Shown here piece by piece: positions 4,720 to 34,730 of a stretch of DNA of 64,000 nt (within the stretch, counting starts at the first letter, position 1; the number at the start of each line of letters is the position of its first letter). Under the pieces are notes generated by a model that was given only the letters and a program-made list of their open reading frames with translations, ran no database searches and was not told the origin of the DNA. A program made the position numbers and the translations under genes. The stretch comes from Deltaproteobacteria bacterium (GTDB lineage: Bacteria > Myxococcota_A > Polyangia > Polyangiales > Houyiibacteriaceae): the NCBI GenBank assembly GCA_034670305.1, contig JAXMNT010000013.1, positions 87,878-151,877 on the forward strand. Direction: 5' to 3'.

Positions 4720-6597
4720 TCAGGTGCCGGCGCGGTGGATGTATGCGAGCACCGCCGCGAGCACCATCTCACTCGACGTGGCGACCCCGAACAGCTGCAG
4801 CGCGTGATCCGGATAGACAATGCACGCGGTCCCCGAGATCACACTCAGGATCGCGATCCAGGCGATCCAGCGGAGGAGCACCACCGAGCCCACGAACAGG
4901 GCGGCCGCGAGCACGAAGCAATCGGTCGCGAACACCTGGGCGACGTCTGGTTCGATCTGAAAGAACTCGAGGCCCACGAACACCGACAGCCGGTGCAACA
5001 GCATCACCCCCATCATCGCCAGGAGCATGAACACCGCCTGGCGGTTGAACGTGCTCACCCACAAACGTTTGCGAAGCACGACGGTGCCGCCGATCATGAT
5101 GAGGGTCGACACAATCGGTATGGCGAGCATGTGGGTGATCGTCACGTCGTCTTGGTCGAGGACGAAGCTGTAGGCCCCGATCGCGATCCCGACGAGCGAC
5201 AACCCGAAGAGCGCGAACGCCCGCGAACCGGACGCCACCCTCGGGTCGTGCTCCCGTGCGAGGCGCTCCAGTTCGGCCTGTCGTTCACGCTGGGACTGGA
5301 GCAGTCCTTCGAGTTCTCGAAGGGTGTCGAGGGCCAGGGTGTTGTCGGGCCACTGGGCGATGGACTGTTCGAGGCCGAACTGGGCCGCGGCGAGGTGCTG
5401 GTCGACCTCGCGCCGCGCATCGACGTCGAGCGCCTCCTCCGTTTCGAGCAGCCGAGACGCCTGTTCGAAACGCAGGCCCGCTTCGGTCGCCAGCGCGGCC
5501 GCGTCGCGGTGCCGCACGAACGCCTTCACCGCATCCCGGAACGCACCCACGTCCGCAGGGCGCGCGTCCGGGTCGACGTGGCAGGCCTGGTTCGCGAGAC
5601 GGGCCAGCTCGCCCGGCACCTCTTCGTCGAACTCGAACGGCTTCGACTGCCGCGCGCTCAACAGGGCCGCGATGGCGGTCTGCGCGTCGTGCCGGGGTCG
5701 ACCGGTCAGGACCTCATGCAACACCGCGCCGAGCAGGTACACGTCGGTGCGCTCGTCGATGCGCCCACCGCCCACCATCTCGGGGGCCATGTAGTTCGGG
5801 GTGCCGCAGAGTCGGGTTTCGGTCTCTCCCACCAAACCTGCGACGCCCCAATCGGCGAGGTACACGTCGCCAAACTTCCCGATGAGCACGTTCTCCGGCT
5901 TGATGTCTCGGTGCACGACGCCGTGCTGGTGCGCGAAGCGCAGCGCCTGGCACACCTGCAAGACGATCTGCAGGTGCCCGAGCAGGCGGTTGTCGGGCTC
6001 CCCGTCCCAGCCCTCCCACCCCTCGTGGGCGGGATCCTGGAGCAGGGCATCCCAGGTGCTCCCCTCGATGCGTTTCATCACCAACGCGGGGCGGCCCGCT
6101 TCGTCGAGCCCGATGGAGTGCACGGGGACGATGGCCGGATGTTCGAGTCGACCGGTGACGCGACCTTCCACGAGCAGCGCGTCGCGCGCGGACTCGGGGG
6201 CACCGTCTTTGGTGGTCTTCACGGCGACTTCTCGGCCGAGCGAATGCTGCTTCGCGAGGAGCACCCGCCCCATGCCGCCCTCCCCGATCAGTCCTGTCAC
6301 CTCGAGATCGGCGGAGGCGCCTCGCGGTGCCGCAGGCGGACTCATCGAGCCGCGCAGGTCGAGCGAGAGACGGGGCAACGGCCGTTGCGTCTGGGTGGCC
6401 GCGGGCTCGACGTCGGCCGGGAGCGTCAGGTCCGCGGAAGCTGCCGGATCGGCCCCTGGCGCGGCCGGCCGGACCACGGACTGCGGCGGTAGGATCGTGG
6501 CGCCCGGTGGCAAGAGCGCCGTGTCCGCGGCCCCGAGCGCGTGGAGCTGGGCCTGCAGACGCTCCACTCCGTCGGGCACATCCTCCATCGACGCCAT
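4720..6597 (-). CDS. Hanks-type Ser/Thr protein kinase with C-terminal multi-pass membrane domain
   Basis: GEGGMG, VAVK, HRDIKPEN, DWG, GTPNYMAPE; about 5 hydrophobic helices at the C-terminus. Confidence 0.92.
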   Translation of the reverse strand: MASMEDVPDGVERLQAQLHALGAADTALLPPGATILPPQSVVRPAAPGADPAASADLTLPADVEPAATQTQRPLPRLSLDLRGSMSPPAAPRGASADLEVTGLIGEGGMGRVLLAKQHSLGREVAVKTTKDGAPESARDALLVEGRVTGRLEHPAIVPVHSIGLDEAGRPALVMKRIEGSTWDALLQDPAHEGWEGWDGEPDNRLLGHLQIVLQVCQALRFAHQHGVVHRDIKPENVLIGKFGDVYLADWGVAGLVGETETRLCGTPNYMAPEMVGGGRIDERTDVYLLGAVLHEVLTGRPRHDAQTAIAALLSARQSKPFEFDEEVPGELARLANQACHVDPDARPADVGAFRDAVKAFVRHRDAAALATEAGLRFEQASRLLETEEALDVDARREVDQHLAAAQFGLEQSIAQWPDNTLALDTLRELEGLLQSQRERQAELERLAREHDPRVASGSRAFALFGLSLVGIAIGAYSFVLDQDDVTITHMLAIPIVSTLIMIGGTVVLRKRLWVSTFNRQAVFMLLAMMGVMLLHRLSVFVGLEFFQIEPDVAQVFATDCFVLAAALFVGSVVLLRWIAWIAILSVISGTACIVYPDHALQLFGVATSSEMVLAAVLAYIHRAGT

Positions 6598-6703: not shown

Positions 6704-9700
6704 TTGGATCGCCCCGCGAACAGTCCGCCGACCGGCCCGCTGCATCAAGTGCAGCGGAGGCTCCAGGCCGAGGAGCTCATTCGATTGCGTCGGCCGGACG
6801 AGCAGCGGCGGTACGTGGCGAGTCAGCGGGCGGGCCGCATCGATCCGAACCCACATCAAATCGACGCGGTGGTGTTCGCACTCCGCCGCATTCCGGAGGG
6901 TGGCTGCATTCTCGCGGACGAGGTCGGACTCGGAAAGACGATCGAAGCCGGGCTGGTGATCGCCCAGATGCTCGCCGAGGGCGCGCGGCGGATCCTGCTC
7001 ATCACGCCGAAGCCGCTGGTCGGCCAGTGGCGCGAAGAACTCTACGCGCTCTTCGACATCGTGGTGCGCGAAGGCAAAGCGGAGCGGAACGCGTTCGACG
7101 GAGACGGAGTGTTCCTGGTCGGGCGTGAGTCGGCCGGCACCAAGACCATGTCCGGTCTTCTGGAGCACAGCGCGCCGTTCGACTTGTGCGTGGTGGACGA
7201 AGCGCACGAGCTCTTCGCGGGCATCTACAAACGGTACGCCGCGGACGGGTCCTACAAAGACGACGCAGGCCACGCGAAGGTGGCGCACCGAGTGCGGGAA
7301 GTGCTCGGCGCGACGCCGGTGCTGCTCTTGACCGCGACGCCTATCCAGAACTCCCTCGCCGAACTCTGGGGACTGATCCAGTACGTCGATCCCTCCGGCA
7401 CGTTGCTGGGCGACCTCCCGACCTTTCGAGAGCTCTTCACCGGCCAGGACGACCGCTCCCTCGCGCCGGGTGCGGACCACGAGCTGCGCCGGCGGGTGCA
7501 GCGGGTCGTGCAACGCACGCTCCGCCGGCAAGCGCAGGAGTTCATGGAGCAGCCGTTCGTGGGCCGGCGCGCGCGCACGTTCGAATACAAGATGACCGAG
7601 GAAGAGAAGGTCATCTACGACGACGTGACCCGGTACTTGCTCAGCCCGAACCTGCAGGCGTTCCGCGGCACGCACCGCAGCCTTCTGCTGCTCGGGTTTC
7701 ACCGGCGCATGGCGTCGAGCAAAGCCGCGCTCGCGCGCAGCCTGAAGAATGTCGAGAACCGGCTTCAGCGCATGCTCACCGCGGCGCAGGCCGGGCGGTT
7801 CGACGAGGGGGAAGAGACCGCCCGCGTGTTCGTCGACGACCTCGATGGCGACGACGAGATCGTGCTCGCGCTCAGCGCCGAGTCGGAGGACGAAGGCAAG
7901 GTCGACCCCGAAGCGGTGCGGCTCGAACTCGAGCGGGTGACCGACCTGCGCGCCCGCACCGAAGCGCTCGCGGTGGACAGCAAAGCCCAGGCGTTGATCC
8001 AGGCAGTCCGGGCGGTGCTCGAACGGGGCCAGTCGTCCAAAGGCGGTCCGGCGGCGGGGTCGGGCAAACTCGTGCTCTTCACCGAGTCCCTCACCACCCA
8101 GGACTACCTGCGGGACCTGCTGGTGGAGTCCGGGCTCGTGACCGAAGGCGAGATCACCCTCTTCCGCGGGGACAACCGCGGGGCCCGCGCCAAAGAAGCG
8201 CTCGCGCGGTGGGAAAAGGAAGTCGAGACCGCCGCCGGCACCACGCCGCCGAGCCGAGACACCGCGACGCGACTCGCGCTGGTGCACGAGTTCCGAACGC
8301 GCAGCCGGGTGTTCATCTCGACCGAAGCCGGCGCCAAGGGTCTGAACTTGCAGTTCTGCGACACGCTCGTGAACTACGACCTGCCGTGGAACCCGCAGCG
8401 GATCGAACAGCGCATCGGGCGATGTCACCGGTACGGACAGACCCGCGACGTCACGGTCATCAACTTCCTCGCGAGCGACAACGAAGCGCAACAGCTCACC
8501 TACGAGATCCTCAGCCGCAAGCTCGAGCTCTTCGGCACCGTGCTCGGCGCGTCCGACGTCATTCTCCACCAGCCGAGTGGCGAGACGAGCGAGTCGGTCC
8601 TCTCCTCGCTCTCGACCGACTTCGAGAAGCAGCTCGGCGCCATCTACCGGCGTGCGCGCTCGCTCGAGGAGATCACCGCGGAGCTCCGCAAGTTGCGCGA
8701 CGAGACCGAAGCGAAGCGCACCAGCTTCGAAGCCGAGCACGCGCGCACCTCGCAGCTGATTCAGAGCCGATTCGACGAGTCGGTGCGCTCCGCGTTCCGG
8801 AAGATCGCCGAGCAGACCCCGGTGGAACTCGCCGCGCTCGACCGCGACCTCGAAGCGGTGCTGAACGCGTTCCTGAACGCGGTGGGCGCGCCGCACGAAC
8901 GAGAAGAAGCCGCCGGCGCGGTGCGGTATCGAATCGGTGCCTGCGCGGCCCTTCCCGGCGCGCTCCGGGAAGGCACCGACGTGTGGATCGGCCAACCCAA
9001 GGCAGCCCACCGGCCACCAGCCCTGCACCTGGCGCATCCATTGGTGCGCGCCGCCATCGACGAGGCGCGCGAGGCCACCCAGAGCACGCAGCACGTGGAG
9101 CTCGCCGCGTCGGAGTCGGGCCCGCTCGCAGGCGCGCGCGGTTGGGTGCGGGTCTCGAAGGTCCGCCGCGACGGACTCGAGCCGGTCGAACAACTCGTCG
9201 CGGTGGGCACCCGCTTTGTGGGCGATGCGGTGGAGCCACTCGACCCGGAGACGATCGACGCACTCCTCTCGGGTGAGCTGCGCTCCGTCGCGGGGGACGC
9301 CGCGACCGACGCCCCCTCCGAGGCCCTTGAAGACGCGCTCGAAGAAGCGATGTTCCTGGCAGAGGCGGATCTCGAAGCCGCGGAGGCGACCCACTTCGAA
9401 GAGCGGCTGGAACGGCTGGAGCGTTTTGTCGAAGACCGGCTGCTCGTGCTCTCGCGACGCCAGCACGAGCTGACCAAACAACGCACCGAAGCCGAACATG
9501 CACGGGAGGCGGCCCTCGCACCGGCCACCCGCGAGCGGGCCGAGGAACGACTGCGGCGGGTTGCCGAACGTTTGGAGCAGATCGAGGTGGAGGTCGACCG
9601 GCTGCGGCGCCGGGAAGACGAGCGGTACACCGCGCTGAAAGAGGCGCTCTACCTCCGACGGTTCGCACCGCCCACCATCGAGACGCTGTTCGAGATGTCC

Positions 9701-9718
9701 TGGAGGGCCGCGCCGTGA
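6704..9718 (+). CDS. SNF2/RapA-family helicase-like ATPase with C-terminal coiled coil
   Basis: LADEVGLGKT, VDEAH, LTATPIQNS, STEAGAKGLNLQ, DLPWNPQRIEQRIGRCHRYGQ. Confidence 0.93.
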   Translation: MDRPANSPPTGPLHQVQRRLQAEELIRLRRPDEQRRYVASQRAGRIDPNPHQIDAVVFALRRIPEGGCILADEVGLGKTIEAGLVIAQMLAEGARRILLITPKPLVGQWREELYALFDIVVREGKAERNAFDGDGVFLVGRESAGTKTMSGLLEHSAPFDLCVVDEAHELFAGIYKRYAADGSYKDDAGHAKVAHRVREVLGATPVLLLTATPIQNSLAELWGLIQYVDPSGTLLGDLPTFRELFTGQDDRSLAPGADHELRRRVQRVVQRTLRRQAQEFMEQPFVGRRARTFEYKMTEEEKVIYDDVTRYLLSPNLQAFRGTHRSLLLLGFHRRMASSKAALARSLKNVENRLQRMLTAAQAGRFDEGEETARVFVDDLDGDDEIVLALSAESEDEGKVDPEAVRLELERVTDLRARTEALAVDSKAQALIQAVRAVLERGQSSKGGPAAGSGKLVLFTESLTTQDYLRDLLVESGLVTEGEITLFRGDNRGARAKEALARWEKEVETAAGTTPPSRDTATRLALVHEFRTRSRVFISTEAGAKGLNLQFCDTLVNYDLPWNPQRIEQRIGRCHRYGQTRDVTVINFLASDNEAQQLTYEILSRKLELFGTVLGASDVILHQPSGETSESVLSSLSTDFEKQLGAIYRRARSLEEITAELRKLRDETEAKRTSFEAEHARTSQLIQSRFDESVRSAFRKIAEQTPVELAALDRDLEAVLNAFLNAVGAPHEREEAAGAVRYRIGACAALPGALREGTDVWIGQPKAAHRPPALHLAHPLVRAAIDEAREATQSTQHVELAASESGPLAGARGWVRVSKVRRDGLEPVEQLVAVGTRFVGDAVEPLDPETIDALLSGELRSVAGDAATDAPSEALEDALEEAMFLAEADLEAAEATHFEERLERLERFVEDRLLVLSRRQHELTKQRTEAEHAREAALAPATRERAEERLRRVAERLEQIEVEVDRLRRREDERYTALKEALYLRRFAPPTIETLFEMSWRAAP

Positions 9719-10962
9719 CCCTCAAGGTCCTTCACACCGCGGACTGGCACCTGGGACGCGCGTTCCCCTCGTTCGACCGCGCGGACGCGGAGACGCTCTC
9801 GCGCGCGCGTTTCGAAGTCGTGGAGCGGATCTTCGGGCTCGCGAAGCGCCACCAGGTCGACGCGGTGTTGTGTGCGGGCGACCTCTTCGACGAACCGCGG
9901 CCGGACCGCGCCTGGTACCACCGCCTGGCGCAGATCCTGAAGACCCACGGCACGGGCGTGCCGGTCGTCTTGTTGCCGGGCAACCACGATCCGCTGGTGC
10001 CGGGAAGCGTCTGGCATCCGGACCACGAGATGCGCCGGCTGCTCCCACCCTTCGCCCACGTGGTCGATCGCGGCGACTTCGAGCTTGCGCTCGGCGACCA
10101 CGCGGTCGTGCTGGCCCGCCCGTGTACGAGCAAGTCCGGGCAGCGGGACAACGCGCTCGCGCTGCCGGACCGCGCGCCGGGCGACGAGCGCATCCGCATC
10201 GGCATGGCGCACGGATCGAGCTTCGACGAGCGCGGGTGGGAGACCAACTTCCCCATCGCGAAGGACGCCGCCATCCGCCGCGGGCTCGACTACCTCGCGA
10301 TCGGCGACACCCACACGTTCCGGGAGGTGCCCCCCGACGCGGAGGTCCCCACCGTCTATCCAAGCGCGCCGGAGGCGACCAACTTCGGCGAGAAGGGCAC
10401 CGGGTTCGTCGCGTCCGTCTTCTTCAAGCGGCATGGCCGGCGGGCGATCGTCCGCAAGGAGCGGGTGGCGCGTTGGCGGTGGCGGCACGAGCGGATCACG
10501 TCGATCGAAGCGCTGCGCACCCTGGCCTCGGAAGAGCTCGCGCACACGGTGCTGCGGCTCGAGCTGGCGATGACCGCCAATGCGGCCGAGCACGACGAAG
10601 TGGACGCCATCGTGCTGGCGCTCAAGGGCAACGAAGCGGCGCACGGACGCGCTGGGGTGCTGCAACTTCAACTCGCAGAGATGGAGCTGCGCACCGACGA
10701 CATCGAACGCTACTTCGAAGGGCTCCCGGATGTGTTGCGCGCGACGGCGTCCAAGCTGCGCGAGCTCGAACAGGGCGAGTTCCCGACCCGCGCCCGCCGC
10801 GCGCTCTACCACCTGTACCGCCTCACCCGGGGCCTCGGCGACGGTGCGCGCGACGCCGACGCACCTGGACACGACGCGCCCGGACACGACGCGCCCGGAC
10901 ACGACGCGCCCGGACACGACGCGCCCGCCACCGAGTCCAATGGATCGGAGAGCGACGCGTGA
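9715..10962 (+). CDS. Mre11/SbcD-like metallophosphoesterase (DNA repair exonuclease)
   Basis: HTADWHLG, AGDLFD, PGNHD, AHGS, GDTH; GTGA overlaps with both neighbours. Confidence 0.92.
   Translation: MTLKVLHTADWHLGRAFPSFDRADAETLSRARFEVVERIFGLAKRHQVDAVLCAGDLFDEPRPDRAWYHRLAQILKTHGTGVPVVLLPGNHDPLVPGSVWHPDHEMRRLLPPFAHVVDRGDFELALGDHAVVLARPCTSKSGQRDNALALPDRAPGDERIRIGMAHGSSFDERGWETNFPIAKDAAIRRGLDYLAIGDTHTFREVPPDAEVPTVYPSAPEATNFGEKGTGFVASVFFKRHGRRAIVRKERVARWRWRHERITSIEALRTLASEELAHTVLRLELAMTANAAEHDEVDAIVLALKGNEAAHGRAGVLQLQLAEMELRTDDIERYFEGLPDVLRATASKLRELEQGEFPTRARRALYHLYRLTRGLGDGARDADAPGHDAPGHDAPGHDAPGHDAPATESNGSESDA
10861..10926 (+). repeat. 15-bp coding tandem repeat (APGHD, about 4 copies) in the SbcD-like tail
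   Basis: gcgcccggacacgac repeated in frame. Confidence 0.85.
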
Positions 10963-13900
10963 AGCTGATCAAGCTCACCTGCTCCGATTTCGCGCGCATC
11001 GCGTACGCGTCGGTGCCGCTCGGTCCCGGACTGAACGTGCTCTACGGGCCGAACGACCTCGGCAAGTCGACGCTCGCCAAGGCACTCCGGGCGGTGCTTC
11101 TGTTGCCGCACACATCCCGCGCGATCGAAGCATGGACCCCATGGAACCGGGAGGCCTCGCCGTGGGTGGAGCTCACCTTCCGTGGCGACGACGGTCGCGT
11201 GTGGCGCGTGCGCAAGGAGTACGCGCGAAGCGGCGGCACCTCGCTGCTGACCGCGAGCACCGACGGAGAGACCTTCACCGAAGAGGCCAAAGGCCGCCAT
11301 GTGGACGGAGTGCTTCGCGAACTCTTGCGTTGGGGCATTCCGGGACCGGGCGGCAAGGGCAGTCCGCGCGGCATGCCCCAGAGTTTTCTCGCGCAGGCGT
11401 TGCTCGGGGAACAAGGCGACGCGGCGCTCGCGCTCGCAGCCTCACTTACCGGCGACGCGGACGAGAGCGGGCGCGATCGCCTCACAGAAGCCCTCGAAGC
11501 GCTGGCCGTCGACGAGCGGTTTCGGTCGGTGCTCGACGCTGCGGACCAGAAGGTGTCTCTGGCGTACAGTCCGAGTGGCAAGCCGAGCAGCGCGCGGCAA
11601 TCGCCGTTTCGAGTCGCCAAGGACGAGGTGCTCGAAGCGCGGCGGGCGCTCGAAATCGCGACCGAGGCACTCGACCGGACCACCGACGCGACTCGGCAAG
11701 GCAGCCTGCTCGAGGCCGACCTGCTCGCGGCGACCGATGCCCGAGACGAACTTCGACGGAGGCTCTCGGCGGCACGGACGCGCGCGGACGTGGCAGCCGC
11801 CCGGGCGAGGGCGGCGGAGGTGCATGCAGACCGCGCCGCGCAACTCGAACGGGTCCAAGCTGCCCGGGCGCGCGCCGAGACGAGCGCTCTCGAAAAGCAG
11901 GAAGCGGAGTCCGGCGCGACCGAGGCGGCGTTGGCGCTGGAGCGGGCACGCGCCGAAGAGGCGACCCAGCTGGCGCACCTGGCGAGCGCGCGCGACGTGC
12001 TGCGGACCGCGGGCGCGGACGACCCACAGAGCGCGCGCAGCCAAGCGCGTGCGTCGCTGGAACGCGAACTCGGGGCGGCACGCCGGGCCCGCGATGAAGC
12101 GCGAGAAGCCGCCCGATCGCTCGCGACGCTGACCGCGGCGCGCGAGGCGCTGGCGCAACACGAAACCAACGTCGGTGCACTCGGCGCGCGGCACGCTTCC
12201 GAGCAGGCGGAACTCGAGCGGGTGGTGGCCGAGTTGCGCGACTCCAAGATCGCGCTGGCCGACCTCGCCGTGCACGACGCAGAGGCGGCGCTGGCATCGG
12301 TGGCATCAGACGAAGCGGCCATCGCGGAGCTCCGCGCCGATGCGGAACGCCAGGAGACACAAGCCACCGAACTCGAGGCCGAACTCGAGGCACTGCCGAG
12401 CGACGCGGCCCTCGCGGCACTTGCGTCGTTGCACGACGAGCTTCGATTCGCTCGCGAGGTTCTGAACGTGGGTCTGTCGGTGGCGCTGAGGAAACCGGCC
12501 GGCGTGACCTTGGATGCGCAAACCGACGACGCCGCATGCGTGGTGGATCTGAGCACCGAGCAGGTCGAGCTCGAAGCGAACCGCACCGTCTCCATCAAAG
12601 CGTCTCTCGCGACTGGTGAGCCCGTGCTCGAGCTGCGGGTGTTCGCGGGTGCTGCGGATGCACGGGCCCGCGCCGCCGAGCTCGAGGCGCGCTGGCAAGA
12701 CGAACAAGCGGTGCTCGGCGGCGTGGAACTCAGCGCATGTCGGCAATCGCGTGCGTCGCTCGCCGCGTCGATCGAAACGCATCGTCGGGACGCCGCGCAC
12801 GCGCGAGAGCGCGCGACCGAGACCGCCGCGCGACTGGGATCGAAGCGGGATGCGGAGCAGGCGCTTGCCCAGCGACGCGCGGAGCGGGAGGCGCTGGGAT
12901 CCTCCCCGAGTGCGTTCGAAGGCGCCCAAGACCGCGGCGCACTGATCCGCGAACGGGACGCGCTGCAGGAGGACGTGGCCAAGCGCCGCGCGGCGGTGGA
13001 TGCCCTCGCCGAGCGCCTGGCCGAGCTCGCTGCGCGCACCGCGGGGCTGAAGGCCGCCGCCGAAGCGGCTGCGCACGGCGCCACCGCTGGGGCGGAGACG
13101 CTGCCCTCCCGGGAGGCGGAGGTGCGGACGCTCGAGTCGCGCTTGGAGGACGCGCAACAAGAAGGGGACCGGACGCTCCAGCAAGCAGAGCACGCGGTGG
13201 ATGTGGCCCGGACGAAGGCCGCCGAGGCGACCACTGCACGCCAAGGAGCGGAGGCTGCGGTGGAGGCGGCGCGGGATCGGCTGGCGCAGGCCCGCACCGA
13301 AGCGGCCGCCGCGGCGGGCGCACTGGAGAACCTGGACGAGACCGCGGCAGAGGCCGCGATGCAGGAGGCCATCCAGACACTCGATGCTCGAACGCGTGCG
13401 CTCGAAGCCCTGCCCGCAGGCGGGTCGGTCGAGTCCCTCGAAGCCGAACTGAGCGCCGCGGAGATCCGACTTCGGGAAGCCGAAGCCGCCGCACAGAAAC
13501 ACGAGGGTCGGCTCGAAGAGGTTGGAGGCGTCGTGGCGGAGGAACGGCACCGGGTGGCCGAAGCCGCCTACGACGCGGCACTCGAACGACGTCAAGACGT
13601 GGAGACGGAGTTCGGCGCGTGGAAGTTGCTGGCCGACACGTTGCGCGAGGCGGAGCGCGATGTGGGCCACCACCTCGGCGAGAGCCTCTCCGGTCCCGTC
13701 TCGCAAGAGATGCGGCGGCTGCTCGACCGAGTCGACGCGACCACCCAGTACGAAGGGCTGTCCCTCGATGCGGATCTGGGCGGGGTCGGGGTGCGGCTCG
13801 GAGGCGAAGTTCGGTCGTTCACCCAGCTCTCGGTCGGTACCCAGGAGCAGATCGCCGCACTCTTCCGCCTGAGCATCGCCACGCACCTCGGCACGCCGAT

Positions 13901-14117
13901 CGTGCTGGACGACCACCTGACCCACACCGACCCCGTGCGGGTGCGGTGGTTCCGAGATCTGCTGCGGGCCGAAGCCCACCGAACCCAGATCGTGGTGCTC
14001 ACCTGCCACCCGCTCGACTACCTGGACGAGGCGGATCTGCCGGAAGAAGGCCGCCCCTTCCGAGACCGCGCCGCAGGGCTCGTGCGGGCCGTCGACCTCA
14101 CTCAGATCATCGAGTGA
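10959..14117 (+). CDS. SMC/Rad50-like (SbcC/YhaN-type) coiled-coil ABC ATPase
   Basis: Real start is GTG 10959 (VKLIKL); Walker A GPNDLGKST, long Ala/Glu/Arg coiled coils, signature LSVGTQEQ, Walker B IVLDD, H-loop LTCH. Confidence 0.92.
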   Translation: MKLIKLTCSDFARIAYASVPLGPGLNVLYGPNDLGKSTLAKALRAVLLLPHTSRAIEAWTPWNREASPWVELTFRGDDGRVWRVRKEYARSGGTSLLTASTDGETFTEEAKGRHVDGVLRELLRWGIPGPGGKGSPRGMPQSFLAQALLGEQGDAALALAASLTGDADESGRDRLTEALEALAVDERFRSVLDAADQKVSLAYSPSGKPSSARQSPFRVAKDEVLEARRALEIATEALDRTTDATRQGSLLEADLLAATDARDELRRRLSAARTRADVAAARARAAEVHADRAAQLERVQAARARAETSALEKQEAESGATEAALALERARAEEATQLAHLASARDVLRTAGADDPQSARSQARASLERELGAARRARDEAREAARSLATLTAAREALAQHETNVGALGARHASEQAELERVVAELRDSKIALADLAVHDAEAALASVASDEAAIAELRADAERQETQATELEAELEALPSDAALAALASLHDELRFAREVLNVGLSVALRKPAGVTLDAQTDDAACVVDLSTEQVELEANRTVSIKASLATGEPVLELRVFAGAADARARAAELEARWQDEQAVLGGVELSACRQSRASLAASIETHRRDAAHARERATETAARLGSKRDAEQALAQRRAEREALGSSPSAFEGAQDRGALIRERDALQEDVAKRRAAVDALAERLAELAARTAGLKAAAEAAAHGATAGAETLPSREAEVRTLESRLEDAQQEGDRTLQQAEHAVDVARTKAAEATTARQGAEAAVEAARDRLAQARTEAAAAAGALENLDETAAEAAMQEAIQTLDARTRALEALPAGGSVESLEAELSAAEIRLREAEAAAQKHEGRLEEVGGVVAEERHRVAEAAYDAALERRQDVETEFGAWKLLADTLREAERDVGHHLGESLSGPVSQEMRRLLDRVDATTQYEGLSLDADLGGVGVRLGGEVRSFTQLSVGTQEQIAALFRLSIATHLGTPIVLDDHLTHTDPVRVRWFRDLLRAEAHRTQIVVLTCHPLDYLDEADLPEEGRPFRDRAAGLVRAVDLTQIIE

Positions 14118-14180: not shown

Positions 14181-16493
14181 TCAGCGCGAGACGGACAGGT
14201 TGTAGACGCCCTGGGTGCAGGTGGTCACGGGCATCACCCGCCGCACCCGAATGAGGACTGTGGACGGCCACGACACGAGGTGGGGACCGGTGTACGCGTT
14301 GATGCCGGAGGATGCGTCGTCGACGAAGGTGTACGAGACGATGTCCGTCGCGGCGCCCGTCGCCACCGGAGCCGTGGTTCCGGTGCAGTTCGTGAAGACA
14401 TCGAAGCGGAAGTTGGGTGCGCTGGGCCCCGTGAGGCTGAGCTGAATGTTTCCGTTGACCGGCCCGCGGGACGTGCTCGGGAAGTTCACCGTGAACCATG
14501 CTTCGGATCCGTCGGCAATCACGCCGGTCGTCGAGGCGGCCCCACCCGCGGCGATCGTGCCGAGCGGACTCGCGGCGGCGCAGACCGGGCTGCCCGCGGT
14601 TCCGGCCGAACACTCACAGCCATCGGAGTAGGTGCCGTTCACGTCGAACTGACCCGCGTTGCACTCGAACGAGCACATGCCGGCAGCGCACATGTAGTTG
14701 GTCGCGCCCGGTGCAGCCGGGCAGAGCGCGGCGCCGGTTCCGTCGTCCGGCGTGCCGTCGCAATCGTCGTCGAGCAGGTTGCAGGACTCGAGCACGGGCG
14801 CACCAGGGGTGCACATGTTCGGGACGCCGCCCGAACATCGCTGCACGGTGCGGCTGCACTCGCCGACGCCGCACGTCACGGTGTCGGCCGCGTCGTCCAG
14901 ATCACGGCACATGCCCGGCATCATGCCGGTGCAGGTGCCGGCCACTGGGGCTTGGCAGGTGTTGTTGCAGTCGATCTGGAGTGGGCCCGTCGGCTGCATG
15001 GGGCACTGGGTCGCCGGCGAGATGCAGGCGCGCGCGCCGTTGCAGGTGGCCACGGTGTCGGTGACGTCCTGGCGCGAGAAGCACGTGTCGGTGCCGCCAG
15101 AGAAGCCGCTGTAGTACCCGCTGCAGGAGTAGCCGAGACATTCGTTGTCGATGTCGGCCGTCGGGGGCACCGGTGCACAGGAGCCTTCGAGGCCGGGCAG
15201 GTCGCACGCCTCGCAGGTGCCGCTGCACATGGAGTTGCAGCACCGGCCGTCGACGCAGAACAGGTCGGACTGACAGTCGGGGGTGCGTCCGCAGATACCG
15301 CCCGGGGGCCGGTCGGGGACGCAGAAGCCACCTTCGCAGTGGGCCGCGTCGATGCACTCGCCGTCGCCGATGCAGCTGGTCGGGCAATCCGGCTCCATCT
15401 GATCGCTCGTGCCATCACAGAAGACCGGGTCGTAGGGCGCGCAGTTCAACGCTTCGACGGAGCTGGTACAGGCCGAGTCGTCCTCGATGCCTTCGATGGT
15501 CTCGCACCGGAACTCTGCGTTGCATTGGGTCTCCCCTCGGGTGCCCTGGCAGGTCTCGGCGTCGTCGCAGAGCGTGGTCGGCATGCCGCCGCCCGGGCAG
15601 TCCGCCGTCTCGAAGCAGCAGGTGCCGCCCGAACAACAGAACCCGTTGTCGCAGTGCCCGGCGCTGCAGTCGGAATCTTCGTCGCACATGCCGCCGTCCG
15701 GCACGTCGGGCTCGCACAGGCCGCCGTCGCAGTGCGCCGGTTCGATGCAGAGCGCGTCGGAGTCCACGCCCTCGTCACTGCAGCTCGCAGCACAGGTGGT
15801 GCCCATCTCGCCGCCCTCGGCGCAGGTGAAGAGCATGCAATCGACGACGTCTCCGTCCGCGCACATCGCATCCGTGCAGGTCGCCCCGCTGACGCCGGTG
15901 TAGGTGCCGTCGCCGTCGTCGTCGCATCGCCCGGACACGCAATCGGTGGGGGGATCATCAACGGAACCGTCGCAGTCCTCGTCGATGCCGTTGCAGATCT
16001 CCATCATCGCTGGGTTGCGGAGAGGATCTTCGTCGTCGCAGTCGGGTCCGAGACATCCGATGCCCTGACCGTGTTCGTCTTCGTCCTCGTCGATGCAGCA
16101 CGGACCACCCGAGGGAATGCAAATGGGGTTGCCGTCCGTGCCAGCCGTCAGGTCGACCACGCAGTTGAAGCCGGTCGGACAGTTCGGGATGTCTGGGTTG
16201 CATGAAACGACGCATGCTTGCTCGCCACTGCTGAGCGTCGCGCAGAAGTTGCTCGCCCCACACTCGACGTGTTCGGTGCAGGTCTCACAGAGTCCGACCG
16301 TTTCGAACCCGGCGTCCGAGCCGGCGTCGGGGTCGGGCGGGGTGTCGGGCGGACCGGCGTCGGGGAGGCCGCTGTCGCCGAGCCCAGCGTCTTCGCCTTC
16401 ACCGGCATCCCCTTCGGGGGGGCTTACGCCGCCAGCGCACCCGGCCAAGAGCAAGATACCCGCGAGTGCGACCCGAACACCATTCATGGACAC
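14181..16493 (-). CDS. Cys-rich myxobacterial surface lipoprotein with MopE-like putative metal-binding repeats
   Basis: Lipobox LAGC; two E.CN..D.DCDG..DD motifs; many CC/CxxC disulfide modules. Confidence 0.85.
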   Translation of the reverse strand: MSMNGVRVALAGILLLAGCAGGVSPPEGDAGEGEDAGLGDSGLPDAGPPDTPPDPDAGSDAGFETVGLCETCTEHVECGASNFCATLSSGEQACVVSCNPDIPNCPTGFNCVVDLTAGTDGNPICIPSGGPCCIDEDEDEHGQGIGCLGPDCDDEDPLRNPAMMEICNGIDEDCDGSVDDPPTDCVSGRCDDDGDGTYTGVSGATCTDAMCADGDVVDCMLFTCAEGGEMGTTCAASCSDEGVDSDALCIEPAHCDGGLCEPDVPDGGMCDEDSDCSAGHCDNGFCCSGGTCCFETADCPGGGMPTTLCDDAETCQGTRGETQCNAEFRCETIEGIEDDSACTSSVEALNCAPYDPVFCDGTSDQMEPDCPTSCIGDGECIDAAHCEGGFCVPDRPPGGICGRTPDCQSDLFCVDGRCCNSMCSGTCEACDLPGLEGSCAPVPPTADIDNECLGYSCSGYYSGFSGGTDTCFSRQDVTDTVATCNGARACISPATQCPMQPTGPLQIDCNNTCQAPVAGTCTGMMPGMCRDLDDAADTVTCGVGECSRTVQRCSGGVPNMCTPGAPVLESCNLLDDDCDGTPDDGTGAALCPAAPGATNYMCAAGMCSFECNAGQFDVNGTYSDGCECSAGTAGSPVCAAASPLGTIAAGGAASTTGVIADGSEAWFTVNFPSTSRGPVNGNIQLSLTGPSAPNFRFDVFTNCTGTTAPVATGAATDIVSYTFVDDASSGINAYTGPHLVSWPSTVLIRVRRVMPVTTCTQGVYNLSVSR

Positions 16494-19732: not shown

Positions 19733-22700
19733 CTAGGAGGACGGCGGGGGGGGCGGGTCGCTCGTCTCGCGCATGAGCGACGCATCGGTGAACGCCCGGA
19801 ACCCATCGGCATCCCCGGCCTCTGCGGCCATGCGGGCCGCGTCCTCGTACTGAAGACGCGCTTCGGTGGAGCGGCGCATCGCCTCGTACACCCGGCCCAG
19901 GTTGGCCGCGGCACGCGCTTCGAGCGCGGGCGCGTCGGCGTCTTCCGCAAGCTTGCGCGCGCCCTTCGCGTGCTCCTCCGCCGCCTCGAAGTCGCCGGTG
20001 ACTTCGAGGGCGTGGGCCAGGCGCAGCTGGCTCGTCGCGCGGACGAGCGACGACGCACCCATCTCCGTCTGGACTTCGAGGGCCCGTCGGAAGGCGTTGG
20101 ACGCCGCGGTGGCATCTCCGCCCTGCAGGCGGAGGTCCCCGAGCGCGACCTGAAGCGCGCCCTCGACCTCCGGCTCGACGCCAGCGCAGATCTCCAGCGC
20201 CTGCCCGTAGTGGCGCATCGCGTCCCGGTTTCGATCCCGCAGGCTCGCGATGGTGCCCAGCACCAAGTGCATGCGGGCCCGCGCCGAATCGTACGGATTG
20301 GTCAGGTCGAGCACCTCGCGCACCACTCCGTCCGCGTGCGCGAGCTCGCCGGTCTTCGCGAGCGCGAGCCCGAGCTTCCGGCTGAAGGTCACCGTGGCGG
20401 TGTCCATGACGGTGTCGCCGCTCTCGAGGGTCTCGCGACGCGCCAGTTCGACCGCCCGCTGAAAAGCGAGGACCGCGGTCGCGGGATCGCCGCGCGTCAT
20501 GGCGACGTCGCCCATGCGCTCGAGCGTCATCAGCGTGCGCATCGGTTCGTCCGCGCGGTACGCGTGTTCCGCGCGGACTTCGAGCGGCGCGCTGCGCTCG
20601 GAGTACGCCGCGAGGATCTTGGTGTGGAGATCTTTTCGAGCCGCCGCTGGAATGAAGGCCTCCACCAACTCGGCGACGAAGCGGTGCCCCGCTTCGATCG
20701 TGGTCCCGGTGATCTGGACCAGGTTCGACTCGCGCAACTCTTCCAGCCCCTCGACGTCGCGCGCCGCAGCGACTTCGCGGAAGAGGCCGAGATCGCAGCG
20801 ACCGCCGAAGGCGGAGATGACCTGGAGCGCGCGCTGCGCCCGCAACGTGAGCCGCTCGACCCGCTGCGCGACGGCATCGGCCAGACGTGGCGGGAGGGTG
20901 GGATCCAGCGTCAGCGTGTCGTGTTCGCGGATCTGATCCAGGTAGAGCGGGAGGAGCCGACGGCCGACGGCCTCCGGGGCGCCTTCGACCGGAGGTTCAC
21001 CGAGGACCTCCGACGCCTGTTCGAGCGTGAGTCCGAGAAGTGCGACCTGGTCGGTGACGTCGGTGTGGCCGTGTAGATCCGCCGTCAACAGAAGCACGGA
21101 GTCCCGGTCGAGCGCATCGGGGAGCCGGTCGATCACCTCGCGGGTGAGGCCGTCGCACCGGGAGTAGTCGTCGATCATCAACACGACCCGCTCGACCTGT
21201 TCGCGGCTGCTCGCGATGCGCACCGCGGTGGCGAGCGCTTCACACACGGCGCCGGCGCGCGAAGGGTGTTCGCTGCCGATGAGCCCCTTCGGCTCGCCGA
21301 GTTCACTGAGCCCCGCCCGCGTCATCGGATCCGCGAACATGCCCGCGTCGCGCGCGACCGCGGAGAGTTCGTCCTCCGCGACCTGGAGCAGGCCCGCGAC
21401 GATGGTGCGAATCGGTGTGTAGGGAACCGGCGCGTAGAACGGAAGCGGCCCGGCGCCCGCCACGAGGTCCCCCGCCTCCGCAAACCGGCCCGCGGCTTCG
21501 TGCATCAAGCGCGTCTTGCCGACGCCGTGTTCGCCCACGATCTCGGCTCGGAGGAAACGTCCGGTGGCCTCGCGGCGGAGCGCGTCGAGACGGGCGAGTT
21601 CTTCGTCGCGTCCCACCAAGGGACCCCGGTCATCGGTCGGTGGGTAGAAGGATCGGATCGGCTTCTTCGGTGTCGGCGAAGTCGGACGCCGAGAGTCGTC
21701 TCCGATGCGCGTGCCGCAGGAACCGCAGAACTTCATGTTCGTGGGGTTCGTCGCACTGCAGGCGGGACAGGTCCGGGTCGTGCCGTCGCGGTTGGCGGCG
21801 AGCGCGTCCGCAGCCCGGCGCAGCTCCGCGGCCATCTCGGCGGCGGATTGGTATCGATCGTCGGCGCGTTTCGCGAGCGCCTTGATCGCGATGTCCGCCA
21901 AGACGTCCGGAACGCCGCGGTGCGGCGCGGTGACGCGGGGATCCGGAATCGGGTCGTTGATGTGCCGGAGCACGACCTTGGTCGGCGTCTCCGCTTCAAA
22001 GGGCAGCTCGTCCGTGAGCAGCTCGTAGAGCACGACGCCGACCGCGTAGAGATCGCCGCGGCCGTCGATGGTCTCGCCTTTGCCCTGCTCCGGCGACATG
22101 TAGTCGGGCGTGCCACACACGAGCCCGGGGCGGGTGATCGAGGTCCCGCCACCGCCCACGATGGTGGCCAGGCCGAAGTCCACCACCTTCACCAGGTCTT
22201 GCCCGGTGCGGAGCTTGCGAACGATGACGTTCTCGGGCTTCAGGTCTCGGTGAACGATGTCGAGCGCGTGCGCTTCGCCAAGCGCGTCGAGCATGCCGAC
22301 CAGCACCGAGCAGATGCGGGGGAACGGGAGGGGCCCTTCCTCGTGCATCACCATCGCCAGGTCCTTGCCGCGCAAGAACTCCATCGCGAGGTACAGGATG
22401 CCGTCGTCGGTTCGGCCGAAGTCGATGACGCTGACGCTGTTGGGATGGTTCAGGCGGCTGGAGGCACGCGCTTCGGTGTAGAAGCGCGCCACGGTCTGTT
22501 CGTCGCCCAGCAGGTGGGGGTGAATGACCTTGATCGCGACGGTGCGCCCAAGCGTGGTCTGCTCGGCGCGGTAGACCCGCCCCATGCCGCCGACGCCGAC
22601 GATCTCCTGGAGCACGTAGTTGCCGCCGATGACCCGGCCGACGAGGGGGTCGGCGTTGCCCGAGGAGCCCTCGGAGAACAGAGCGGCGCCACAGGTGGCA

Positions 22701-22771
22701 CAGAAGCGGTCGTCGGACTGCGCCGCCGCCCCGCACTGATGGCAAACTCGCACGGCCGGAGAATACCCCAA
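19733..22771 (-). CDS. Zinc ribbon / Ser-Thr kinase / zinc ribbon / AAA ATPase / TPR multidomain protein
   Basis: CHQC..CATC; GVGGMG, HRDLKPEN, DFG, GTPDYMSPE; CPAC..CGSC; LVGR..E..GEHGVGKT; TPR-like C-terminus. Confidence 0.9.
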   Translation of the reverse strand: MGYSPAVRVCHQCGAAAQSDDRFCATCGAALFSEGSSGNADPLVGRVIGGNYVLQEIVGVGGMGRVYRAEQTTLGRTVAIKVIHPHLLGDEQTVARFYTEARASSRLNHPNSVSVIDFGRTDDGILYLAMEFLRGKDLAMVMHEEGPLPFPRICSVLVGMLDALGEAHALDIVHRDLKPENVIVRKLRTGQDLVKVVDFGLATIVGGGGTSITRPGLVCGTPDYMSPEQGKGETIDGRGDLYAVGVVLYELLTDELPFEAETPTKVVLRHINDPIPDPRVTAPHRGVPDVLADIAIKALAKRADDRYQSAAEMAAELRRAADALAANRDGTTRTCPACSATNPTNMKFCGSCGTRIGDDSRRPTSPTPKKPIRSFYPPTDDRGPLVGRDEELARLDALRREATGRFLRAEIVGEHGVGKTRLMHEAAGRFAEAGDLVAGAGPLPFYAPVPYTPIRTIVAGLLQVAEDELSAVARDAGMFADPMTRAGLSELGEPKGLIGSEHPSRAGAVCEALATAVRIASSREQVERVVLMIDDYSRCDGLTREVIDRLPDALDRDSVLLLTADLHGHTDVTDQVALLGLTLEQASEVLGEPPVEGAPEAVGRRLLPLYLDQIREHDTLTLDPTLPPRLADAVAQRVERLTLRAQRALQVISAFGGRCDLGLFREVAAARDVEGLEELRESNLVQITGTTIEAGHRFVAELVEAFIPAAARKDLHTKILAAYSERSAPLEVRAEHAYRADEPMRTLMTLERMGDVAMTRGDPATAVLAFQRAVELARRETLESGDTVMDTATVTFSRKLGLALAKTGELAHADGVVREVLDLTNPYDSARARMHLVLGTIASLRDRNRDAMRHYGQALEICAGVEPEVEGALQVALGDLRLQGGDATAASNAFRRALEVQTEMGASSLVRATSQLRLAHALEVTGDFEAAEEHAKGARKLAEDADAPALEARAAANLGRVYEAMRRSTEARLQYEDAARMAAEAGDADGFRAFTDASLMRETSDPPPPPSS

Positions 22772-22837
22772 GAAGTCCGCGGGGGTAGGATGAGTTCCGT
22801 CGGTGGTCGTGCCTGCGTTCAGGGACGCCCCAGACCC

Positions 22838-24427
22838 CTACGGCCGGCCCACCCGTCGGGCGATTTGCGGGCCCAACCCCTCGAGCGCAGCGCCCCGGGC
22901 AGACGCCACCACCCGGCCCTCCGAAATCAGAAACGCCGCGGGCACCGGAGGCGCGCCAAACGCCGGTGGGGGCGTGGGGTCGAGGCGCAGATCGAAGGGC
23001 AAAGGGGTCGGCTGCGCCGCCAGGAACGCGTCCAGCGCCGACCGATCTTCGTCTACGGCGACGGCCACGATCCGCAGGCCCTCTCCGTGTTGCACCTGCA
23101 GTGCACGCATCACGTCGAGTTCTTCCCGGCACGGTGCACACCAGGATGCCCAGAACACGAGCAGCGTCGGGGTCTCTCCGTCGTGGACCGGGGCTTCGCC
23201 CCCCGACACGCGCACCGGTGCGTAGGTGGGGAGGTCGTCGCCGAGCCGAATCCGGTTCGGCGGCGCTTGCGGGCTGGGGGCGGGTTGGGGGTCCCCGAGT
23301 GCCGAGAGCCGCTGCCGCGTGACCCGCAGCCGGCCATGGGAGACCATGGCGACATACGCCACGCCATCGCGAACCCGGAGGTCCACGTGGACCGCACCGG
23401 TGGACCGGAGCACCGGCTTCGGGTCGGTCCGTTCGCCAGTCTCCGTCACGAGTTGGAGGACCCATCGCCGCCCGTCGGGCCGCAGCACCACTGCGTTCCC
23501 CGCGTCGGCGAGCTTGACCGAGAGGCGCGGATCGGAGTCGTGGGCCAGGTGGATCGGCGCCGCGAAGATTGGCGCGGCGGACGCCGGGTGGGTGCCGAAC
23601 GCGAGTTGCAGTGTGTGCCCCTGCTCGCTCCCGACCGCTGTGGACCAGCCCACCACCGTCTTCGATCCGCCTTCGCCCAGCAACGCGTCCACGCTCGGAC
23701 CCGGTTGCACCGGGTCCCCGAACGCACAGGGCGGTCGCTGCCATCCGTCCTGCGCAACGTGCCCGCGTTGGTCGAACGCCGTCGAGTCGCGGGCGGCGGA
23801 GAGCCAGCTCAGATCGTGGATCTCCATCGGGTCCCGGTCTCGGTAGACAAGCAGGGGCGGGCCCGATCGGGTGGCCGCCAAACCACTGCACAGGTCCAGC
23901 CGGTCGTCCGGGTCGTTCAGAGCGCGCCCCACCTGCGGGTCTCGCGTCAACAGCATGGGTGCCATGCCGGCGAACTGTCCGATCCATGCGGCAAAGACAT
24001 CTCCACCGCGGCGTCCCCAAGCGACCTGCTCGGTGCTGCGTGCACCATCCAGAACCACCGACGAGCCGAAGGTGTCGCCCCGCCGCACGTACACGCCGAC
24101 CACTTCGCCATCGTCCACCACCGCGTACAGCTGCGAGCCGCGCTGAATCATCGGGACCGGACCCCGCGCCTGCCGAGCGACGCGTGTGGGCGTGGTCCAG
24201 CCCGCTTCCTGATGCCGGATCATCCACGCCCCACCGCCTTGCAGGTACGACAGCCCCATCTCAGCGCCTTCGAACTCGATCCACCGAGGATGGGAGAGTT
24301 CGCCTTCGCCCGAAGCCGGCGGGTCGAACTCCTCGAAGGGCGGCGGGGCAGGCGCTTCTTCGTCGCCGCCGCATCCGAGCGTCATGCAAAGCGTCCAAAC
24401 CATCATCGAGAGCCGGCGCACGATCAT
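22838..24427 (-). CDS. Lipoprotein with C-terminal TlpA/thioredoxin domain
   Basis: Lipobox TLGC; FWASWCAPCREE. Confidence 0.8.
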   Translation of the reverse strand: MIVRRLSMMVWTLCMTLGCGGDEEAPAPPPFEEFDPPASGEGELSHPRWIEFEGAEMGLSYLQGGGAWMIRHQEAGWTTPTRVARQARGPVPMIQRGSQLYAVVDDGEVVGVYVRRGDTFGSSVVLDGARSTEQVAWGRRGGDVFAAWIGQFAGMAPMLLTRDPQVGRALNDPDDRLDLCSGLAATRSGPPLLVYRDRDPMEIHDLSWLSAARDSTAFDQRGHVAQDGWQRPPCAFGDPVQPGPSVDALLGEGGSKTVVGWSTAVGSEQGHTLQLAFGTHPASAAPIFAAPIHLAHDSDPRLSVKLADAGNAVVLRPDGRRWVLQLVTETGERTDPKPVLRSTGAVHVDLRVRDGVAYVAMVSHGRLRVTRQRLSALGDPQPAPSPQAPPNRIRLGDDLPTYAPVRVSGGEAPVHDGETPTLLVFWASWCAPCREELDVMRALQVQHGEGLRIVAVAVDEDRSALDAFLAAQPTPLPFDLRLDPTPPPAFGAPPVPAAFLISEGRVVASARGAALEGLGPQIARRVGRP

Positions 24428-24475
24428 GAAGGGCTGCGTACCACGCGATCACCGTGGCGGCGACTCGGCCGGGGC

Positions 24476-33842: not shown

Positions 33843-33977
33843 GGCCCACCCTACTTCGTTTCGGTGACCGGGCGCATGCTCGATCGCCCGCCCGTCTCGC
33901 GAAGCGAGCCAGGCCTCGAACAGCGCCAGCGAGCCAGGCCCGTAGCGGCAAGAAATATCGTGTGCTCTAGTTGGAGC

Positions 33978-34730
33978 GTGGCGTCTTCGACCGATCGCAG
34001 CTGGACCATCGCCGTCGTGTCGGCTGGCATCGCGACGTGGGCCGTGGTGGTCGCGGTGCCGGTTTGGGCGGGTGGCGCATCTTTCACGCCATCGCTGGCG
34101 CTCCTGGCGATGCCGCTCCTTCCGTTGTGGCTCGGCGGCTTCCCCGCACCCACCGCCGACCCCACGACCCCGCGACCGCGCTCGTGGCGCGCGCCGACGG
34201 TGTGGTGGTTGGTGGTCTTCCCCGCGACACTCGCGCTCGCTGCGTGGCTCGGCAAGGGGGTGGCCGCCGGTGAGACGTTGACCTTGCCGACGGTGGTGCT
34301 CGGAGCCGTCGCGCTCTTGGTCTTCGGAGGGCTGGCGCTCTCTGCGAGCACCCGCATCGAGCCCGCCGCCTCCGTCAAGTCGGAGACGCTCGGCGTGGTG
34401 TCGGGCGACCCCGCCGGTGCCCGGCGACGTCTCGCGCGCAAAGCGTTGCTCTTCACCGCCGCGATCGGTGCGTTCGCGATCGGCGTGATCGCGCCCTACG
34501 CCGACCGCCCCGCCTGGGTGAAGCACTGGGGAGATGCCGCAGGCGCCGCGAGCGTCTTCGCGGCAGTGGCCGCCGGGGCCATCGCGGTCGTGGTGATGAC
34601 CGGCTTCGCCGGACCCGCGACGCGTCGATCACGCAAACGGGTCACCCGCCGCCGCAGCCGAATCCGTGTCGCCCTGTCGCTCACGGTCGCCGTCACGGGC
34701 TGCGGCGTGTGGCTCTTGATGACGCGCTGA
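33978..34730 (+). CDS. Multi-pass membrane protein, hypothetical
   Basis: About 7 hydrophobic helices in the last 250 aa of the long + ORF; GTG start inferred. Confidence 0.7.
   Translation: MASSTDRSWTIAVVSAGIATWAVVVAVPVWAGGASFTPSLALLAMPLLPLWLGGFPAPTADPTTPRPRSWRAPTVWWLVVFPATLALAAWLGKGVAAGETLTLPTVVLGAVALLVFGGLALSASTRIEPAASVKSETLGVVSGDPAGARRRLARKALLFTAAIGAFAIGVIAPYADRPAWVKHWGDAAGAASVFAAVAAGAIAVVVMTGFAGPATRRSRKRVTRRRSRIRVALSLTVAVTGCGVWLLMTR

Follow-up and report, generated by a model that had tools for sequence, protein, structure and literature searches.

A conserved three-gene cassette of an SNF2-family ATPase, an Mre11/SbcD-type nuclease and a Rad50/SMC-like ATPase in scattered bacteria

The cassette and its conservation

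The window analysed here is a stretch of 64,000 nucleotides from a Deltaproteobacteria bacterium of the Polyangiales (contig JAXMNT010000013.1, positions 87,878 to 151,877 of the forward strand). It has a G+C content of about 70% and lies on contig C13 of a 7.9 Mb genome that is 96% complete. Within the window, three genes on the plus strand form a cassette of 7.4 kb (6704-14117). The first gene (6704-9718), with a putative TTG start at 6704, encodes a predicted SNF2 ATPase of 1004 residues. The second (9715-10962) encodes a 415-residue nuclease of the Mre11/SbcD type, and the third (10959-14117) encodes a 1052-residue ATPase with a predicted Rad50/SMC fold. The original prediction, made from this sequence, described the genes as joined by GTGA overlaps. 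Both overlaps are present, one between the SNF2 stop and the nuclease start and the other between the nuclease stop and the ATPase start.

A profile-guided scan with one genome per species returned 256 relatives of the nuclease, of which the best 80 loci were kept. These loci span at least six phyla, and their titles name Myxococcota, Acidobacteriota, Planctomycetota, Pseudomonadales/Azotimanducaceae, Spirochaetia and Verrucomicrobiae. The union of the SNF2 gene with the nuclease-ATPase pair, proposed from the single locus, holds in other genomes: by tblastn, an SNF2 gene lies upstream of the nuclease in 77 of the 80 loci, or 77 of the 78 with room for it. Two of the misses have less than 300 nt of upstream sequence, and the third (L057) has an FG-GAP protein at that position. 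Downstream of the nuclease, an SMC-like ATPase gene is found by tblastn in 78 loci (78 of the 79 with room); one miss (L012) lies at a contig end, and the other (L045) is truly without an SMC gene. In this last copy, from an Azotimanducaceae genome, we notice a D12-class Dam-like adenine methylase at 9033-9977, in the interval between the SNF2 and nuclease genes.

Three full-length open reading frames (ORFs) in the same order and with the same overlaps were recovered by script in 57 of the 80 loci, and in most of the other 23 the ORFs are truncated at contig ends or by the start/stop heuristic of the script. The nuclease-to-SMC junction is mostly an overlap of -4 or -1 (n = 68), and the gap from SNF2 to nuclease has a median of about 20 nt (n = 65). 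No conserved fourth gene was found in the flanks, where the largest cluster holds 10 proteins in 8 of 81 loci. The trio is a real conserved cassette.

Interrupted and broken copies also occur. An IS21 element lies between the SNF2 and nuclease genes in L060, and a TetR gene occupies the same gap in L030. The SNF2 gene is split in L026 and L070, the SMC gene is broken in L084, and all genes are fragments in a Verrucomicrobiae bin (L073). Such broken copies, a minority, would fit three chance neighbours or non-functional relics. The shared order and overlaps speak against this explanation, as do the invariant catalytic residues and the mean column identity across phyla, which is 58% for the SNF2 protein (27 orthologues, conserved over the full length), 60% for the nuclease (18 orthologues) and 40% for the ATPase (24 orthologues). 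We regard it as very improbable.

Among more distant relatives, the full trio is kept in three further genomes at 36-44% nuclease identity (L096-L098), and a relative at 34% consists of the nuclease-ATPase pair alone. In one genus of the window's own family (g14; genomes G013 and G024), a pair at 42-44% identity lies beside SIR2 and Lon genes with no intact SNF2 gene (L093, 9515-13398; L094, 6396-11463), and L094 retains an SNF2 remnant of 112 residues. A profile search of 1.84 billion representatives gave 531 proteins at E ≤ 1e-30. Their full-length scores fall from at least 364 to at most 210 bits, which indicates a small distinct subfamily. An apparent nuclease-SMC fusion of 1338 residues (P0137) looks like a frameshift read-through, and P0177 has no SNF2 similarity; we base no Rosetta-stone claim on either.

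The three proteins and their relation to known systems

The first protein matches the Pfam models SNF2-rel_dom (74.5 bits) and Helicase_C (56.8 bits), and its motifs GLGKT, DEAH, TATP and QRIGRxHRYGQ are invariant among the orthologues. The best PADLOC family for its core is DrmD (PDLC02619, 428 bits). With the NCBIfam model DISARM_DrmD_b (NF038318) it scores 432.8 bits, below the cut-off of 950, and with NF038317 it scores 241.7 bits against a cut-off of 610. The RapA equivalog PRK04914 (131.2 bits, cut-off 576) and the ZorD equivalog NF041790 (52.6 bits, cut-off 1500) likewise stay below their cut-offs, and the BrxHII model gives 137 bits. Judged by these scores, the protein is an SNF2-family ATPase of the RapA/DrmD/BrxHII type. 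A search of PHROGs returned family-level matches only, to helicases and to the SbcD N-terminus.

The SNF2 protein's C-terminal part (residues 645-1004; 8636-9715, plus strand) was modelled by AlphaFold2 with a pLDDT of 89.4. The model combines a long helix with a beta domain, a coiled-coil hairpin of two helices and a closing strand. Searching it against the PDB with Foldseek gave four RapA entries as the only matches at E ≤ 1e-3 (8spg, 5e-5). A wide search with VIA-align returned only generic helical hairpins and was set aside. The modelled architecture matches the BrxHII/RapA C-terminus as described in the part of PMC12839542 that deals with it, where a Tudor domain is also described. We found no N-terminal Tudor domain in the SNF2 protein; only about 45 residues precede the Q motif, too few to hold one.

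Among known defence systems, the core of the SNF2 protein is most like the DrmD models of DISARM, but it falls below the DrmD cut-offs, and DrmA, DrmB (DUF1998), DrmC (PLD) and a methylase are not in the window's flanks. With BrxHII of BREX type 3 and with RapA it shares a C-terminal beta domain with a two-helix insert, whereas their N-terminal Tudor domain is absent from it; the BREX proteins PglZ and BrxC are not conserved neighbours of the cassette. Zorya type I differs in the low ZorD score, and no ZorA, ZorB or ZorC lies in the window flanks.

The nuclease matches the Pfam model Metallophos (66.4 bits), which represents calcineurin-like metallophosphoesterases. The SbcD model TIGR00619 gives 65.5 bits against a cut-off of 77.65 and covers only residues 3-93 of 415, with the same outcome in the genome search, and SbcD/Mre11 structures in the PDB match residues 3-95. 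The motifs DxH, GD, GNHD, H166 and GDTH are conserved, with D10/H12, D56, N90/H91, H166 and D198/H200 invariant in all 18 sequences. Motif V of Mre11 is GHxH; the nuclease here reads GDTH. A conserved C-terminal helix, ARRALYHLYRL, is suspected to be an ATPase-binding element. The nuclease of the window also carries a 15-nt tandem repeat (10836-10925, plus strand), which encodes an acidic tail of four to five copies of DAPGH and is absent from all 17 aligned orthologues. PADLOC 2.0 holds no model for this nuclease and gave no match to it.

For the third protein, Pfam reports AAA_23 at threshold (27.3 bits) and SMC_N below threshold, and the sequence search found no relative in the PDB. The SbcC model TIGR00618 does not match it in either the NCBIfam or the genome search, and neither does Pfam AAA_27 (PF13514) at E ≤ 0.01. 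The AAA_27 match in the genome search belongs to another gene, on contig C53 (5702-6247, 28.8 bits), which may encode a second SbcE-like ATPase. The nearest ESM-Atlas clusters of the third protein carry AAA_23 and AAA_27, the latter on 32-85% of members, which we take as a lead only. PADLOC matches LmuB at 29.1 bits, confined to residues 16-109.

The full-length model of this ATPase (pLDDT 76.4) displays a split head and two antiparallel coiled-coil arms of about 290 residues each. Foldseek matches it to Smc5/6 (4e-22) and Rad50 (7zr1, 1e-16), and also to condensin, JetC (9qe0) and MukB, with values down to 1e-13; the head alone matches Rad50. At the level of the modelled fold, the ATPase belongs to the Rad50/SMC superfamily. 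At the apex (residues 506-562; 12474-12644, plus strand), at the position of the zinc hook in Rad50 and of the hinge in SMC proteins, the model places a six-strand beta domain. The strands coincide with a conserved block of the alignment (D523, G564, W579), and the pLDDT of this block is about 78-87. The alignment contains no conserved cysteine pair of the CxxC zinc hook. The ATPase had been described as hook-less, and this stands; the apex is nevertheless not empty, being occupied by a conserved domain.

The Walker A lysine, the Q-loop glutamine and the signature LSVGTxEQ of the ATPase are invariant. Its Walker B is an invariant LDD, with an aspartate in place of the usual catalytic glutamate of ABC ATPases, and the H-loop position is either H or R among the orthologues. 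RecF has a similar D-D Walker B. The claim that all catalytic motifs are intact is therefore only partly true: it is right for the SNF2 protein, for the nuclease and for the Walker A, Q-loop and signature of the ATPase, but not for the Walker B and the H-loop. We also observed a length variant. In a clade centred on Kofleriaceae/Haliangiales (L014, L019, L022-L024, L033, L038, L039, L041, L071), the ATPase has about 1283-1304 residues, some 230 more than the approximately 1050-1110 residues found elsewhere.

The nuclease-ATPase pair resembles SbcCD/Mre11-Rad50 in several respects. A metallophosphoesterase gene lies directly 5' of a long coiled-coil ABC ATPase gene and is translationally coupled to it, the nuclease N-terminus matches SbcD/Mre11, and the ATPase head and fold match Rad50/SMC. 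In contrast to SbcCD, the cassette is below the SbcD cut-off and misses the SbcC model, a beta apex replaces the zinc hook, the Walker B is LDD rather than D-E, a third SNF2 gene is linked, and the occurrence is rare and patchy. SbcF-SbcE (YhaO-YhaN) of B. subtilis and the AAA_23/AAA_27 pairs are also SbcCD-like nuclease-ATPase pairs without a hook. They have no SNF2 gene, and AAA_27 gives no match at E ≤ 0.01 to the cassette ATPase, whose nearest ESM-Atlas clusters do carry it; this comparison rests on the family models.

Lamassu and Wadjet likewise couple a long-armed SMC-fold ATPase to a nuclease, and JetC is among the full-length Foldseek matches. A shared logic, the sensing of DNA ends or topology, is plausible. 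They differ from the cassette, whose nuclease is of the Mre11 type and which adds an SNF2 motor. LmuB matches only the N-terminal 100 residues or so of the ATPase, and LmuA and LmuC are absent. No JetA, JetB, JetC or JetD model appears among the PADLOC matches listed (the best 25 of 43 for SNF2) or among the window neighbours. The closest analogy in logic is the archaeal HerA-NurA-Mre11-Rad50 operon, which combines a motor ATPase with Mre11 and Rad50 for end processing. Its motor is the hexameric HerA, with the NurA nuclease, and not an SNF2 protein; the operon is a housekeeping one and is widespread in archaea.

None of the PADLOC systems or NCBIfam equivalogs describes the trio. The absence of a match to a described system had been anticipated, and the searches bear it out: PADLOC does not match the nuclease; its match to the ATPase is weak and N-terminal, and the SNF2 protein is matched only at the family level as DrmD-like, below the NCBIfam cut-off. 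No paper on the trio emerged from full-text literature searches that combined SNF2 with SbcD, SbcC, Mre11 or Rad50, used defence terms, paired DrmD with SbcCD or covered BrxHII. Within the reach of these searches, the fixed three-gene union of SNF2 with an Mre11/Rad50-like pair appears undescribed in bacteria.

Distribution, mobility and neighbouring genes

The nuclease occurs in 11 of 41 close relatives (E ≤ 1e-30), and genera are split, with one of two genomes carrying it. Across the phylum it was found in 6 of 301 sampled genomes (E ≤ 1e-60); such patchiness was one of the checks named in the original prediction. In a maximum-likelihood tree of 81 nucleases, the phylum label changes 16 times against a minimum of 5, a count to be read with the caution that bins can be mislabelled and that titles with ‘proteobacterium’ may hide Myxococcota. 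Supported nestings include two Acidobacteriota within a Myxococcota clade and a near-identical pair from Myxococcales and Vicinamibacteria. The cassette is rare, patchy and phylogenetically scattered, and it is horizontally mobile between distant bacteria as one unit.

As a candidate role for such a cassette, we considered the replacement of SbcCD and rejected it. Of the 7 genomes with a strong nuclease orthologue, 2 have canonical SbcD above the cut-off, as do 9 of the other 34. These distributions are not complementary, which indicates that the cassette does not simply replace SbcCD.

Genes of mobile elements adjoin some copies. L021 lies next to the conjugation genes of a TrwC relaxase and a TrwB coupling protein, and transposase or integrase genes are near L043, L051 and L076. 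On plasmids, we found only nuclease-ATPase pairs of about 30% identity, without SNF2, in Rhizobium, Vitreoscilla and Rhizorhabdus. One of these distant pairs (L092) is on the conjugative plasmid pSWIT02 of Rhizorhabdus wittichii RW1 (108444-115146). Its annotated neighbours are an ‘Abi family protein’ and a DUF1814/regulator pair, a defence-like setting for an SNF2-less relative.

These associations, with distant pairs carried on conjugative plasmids, would suit a cassette that is cargo of mobile elements, processing their own replication or recombination intermediates or competing with rival elements rather than serving the host. Most loci, however, lack element hallmarks. The window copy has no tRNA gene, no bounding repeats and no shift in G+C relative to its surroundings, and the phage and plasmid records searched contain no orthologue. 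We consider element cargo improbable.

The genes beside the cassette were searched with PADLOC in 58 loci, taking two called genes on each side (224 proteins, from our own gene calls) and counting matches at E ≤ 1e-30 as strong. Ser/Thr kinases matching PD-T4-6, which abound in these genomes (4 of 112 random control proteins), were for that reason left out of the counts, as were two generic proteins, an RtcR-like one in L032 and a PycC-like cyclase in L046. Strong matches remained in 18 of the 58 loci and for 29 of the 224 neighbours. In the control, which comprised 28 four-gene stretches placed at random in the own genome, such a match occurred in 2 stretches and for 2 of 112 proteins. By Fisher's test, p is 0.015 for the loci and 0.0005 for the proteins; these values overstate the difference, since the control comes from a single genome and the loci are not independent, and the use of our own gene calls is a further weakness. 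Relative to this control, the surroundings of the cassette are enriched in defence genes, a point that the original prediction had named for checking.

BREX genes adjoin the cassette in four loci. In L024 (3-7020), PglZ, BrxD and BrxHI (1179 bits) lie directly upstream on the same strand as the cassette. L016 (1492-6211) has BrxF, BrxC and PglXI, L069 (14439-15427) has BrxF and BrxC, and L053 (2367-2975) has BrxA. The other strong neighbours are Avs2 (L026), AbiE/AbiL (L060, L061, L082), a type II restriction-modification pair (L048), a methylase with a WYL protein (L071), HerA with a DruE-like protein (L058), PD-Lambda-2 (L080), Hhe/PDC-S37-like helicase-nucleases (L021, L038), a Ppl-like ATPase (L047) and PDC candidates (L014, L022, L045). 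No full-length match to DrmA, DrmB or DrmC was found among the 224 neighbours or in the window flanks.

The BREX neighbours raise the idea that the trio serves modification-based systems, BREX in particular, as an added effector: it would work only in concert with a methylation-dependent neighbour, to which it would supply the missing nuclease. The BrxHII/RapA architecture of the SNF2 protein would suit this, as would the restriction-modification pair of L048, the methylase of L071 and the Dam-like methylase inside L045. Against it, BREX genes are absent from the two nearest genes on either side in 54 of the 58 loci, no flanking gene is conserved, and no methylase or BREX gene was found in the flanks of the window copy. 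This explanation is quite unlikely in our view.

In the window, the 5' neighbour is a Ser/Thr kinase gene (4720-6597) and the 3' neighbour a gene for a MopE-motif protein (14181-16493). Both are on the minus strand, opposite to the cassette, which agrees with the arrangement first reported. A recD, recB, recC operon lies at 24476-34526 (minus strand), about 10 kb away as stated earlier. No promoter-like site was found for the window cassette, and terminator-like sites are as frequent as expected from shuffled sequence. Long ORFs on the plus strand over recBCD, such as 21266-26644 (1792 residues), have no Pfam match and are probably shadow ORFs of high-G+C DNA. At 19733-22771 (minus strand), a protein of 1012 residues has a STAND-like signalling architecture, in which zinc ribbons are joined to a Ser/Thr kinase domain, an AAA_16 ATPase and TPR repeats.

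Possible function of the cassette

Most probably, the cassette is a machine that processes DNA ends or hairpins. By homology to Rad50/SbcC, a dimer of the SMC-like ATPase would clamp DNA with ATP and recognise free ends or hairpins. The Mre11/SbcD-type nuclease would dock on the ATPase heads and cut at the sensed ends or hairpins, as its family suggests. The SNF2 protein, a putative translocase on double-stranded DNA, would feed DNA to the nuclease or strip proteins that protect the ends. It would thereby contribute motor activity, which may be missing from the SMC-like heads in view of their LDD Walker B and variable H-loop. This division of labour, in which the SMC protein senses, SNF2 translocates and the nuclease cuts, was already part of the original prediction and draws on what is known of the families.

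We favour, with about even confidence, a mobile nuclease machine that senses DNA ends or hairpins, has an added translocase and is used against foreign DNA. Restriction of phage or plasmid DNA would then be a more likely role than core chromosome repair. The enriched defence neighbours are consistent with this, and the SNF2 protein is closest to SNF2 families linked to defence. A more specific form is that the trio is a new anti-phage or anti-plasmid system, in which a hook-less Rad50-like clamp with a new beta apex as dimerisation domain detects the ends or hairpins of invading DNA and passes them to an Mre11-type nuclease, with a dedicated SNF2 translocase driving the processivity or access of that nuclease. 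We propose this form more tentatively, at somewhat less than an even chance.

Several observations weigh against a mobile defence role. Forty of the 58 loci have no strong defence neighbour, and PADLOC matches are domain-level. The window's own neighbours are ordinary genes rather than defence genes: its flanks give no PADLOC match except the generic kinase, as the original prediction had noted in finding no methylase or known defence partner adjacent. The lack of orthologues in phage and plasmid records, where plasmids hold only the distant SNF2-less pairs, points the same way. Recurring neighbours within the window's family (MopE-motif protein, Lon, SIR2) suggest partly vertical descent, and the g14 pair with only an SNF2 remnant implies that the motor is dispensable in some lineages. 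In addition, the own genome has no SbcD or SbcC above the TIGR cut-offs in our model search (positions of note, C53:5702-6247, the AAA_27 match mentioned above, and C9:67229-67372), which would fit a repair role there.

An accessory repair role is accordingly the chief alternative. The cassette would be an SbcCD/SbcEF-like processor of ends or hairpins for its own chromosome, with SNF2 clearing RNA polymerase, nucleoid proteins or end-bound proteins. Parallels exist in the archaeal HerA-NurA-Mre11-Rad50 operon and in eukaryotic MRN with Fun30/INO80. The nuclease and ATPase come from repair-type families, RecBCD is encoded nearby, and the SNF2 C-terminus resembles RapA, a housekeeping protein; the missing canonical SbcCD and the loci without defence genes can be counted here as well. 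However, the cassette is rare and patchy even within genera, its tree nests across phyla, and some copies are decayed or interrupted by an insertion sequence. The lack of complementarity with canonical SbcD and the excess of defence neighbours over the control also speak against repair. We regard this role as possible but rather unlikely, and less probable than the use against foreign DNA.

Mre11-Rad50-type pairs have central roles in DNA repair and in several immune systems, and so do SNF2 motors. How SMC-like proteins can dimerise and signal when they have neither hook nor hinge is a question to which the beta apex and the LDD Walker B are relevant. Being compact and self-contained, the cassette lends itself to direct tests in laboratory strains. 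If it serves repair, it would offer a bacterial model for remodeller-type motors that assist end resection. If it is a defence system, it would represent a new effector logic that unites an end-sensing clamp, a cutter and a translocase, a bacterial counterpart of eukaryotic MRN with SNF2 remodellers that moves between phyla as a three-gene unit.

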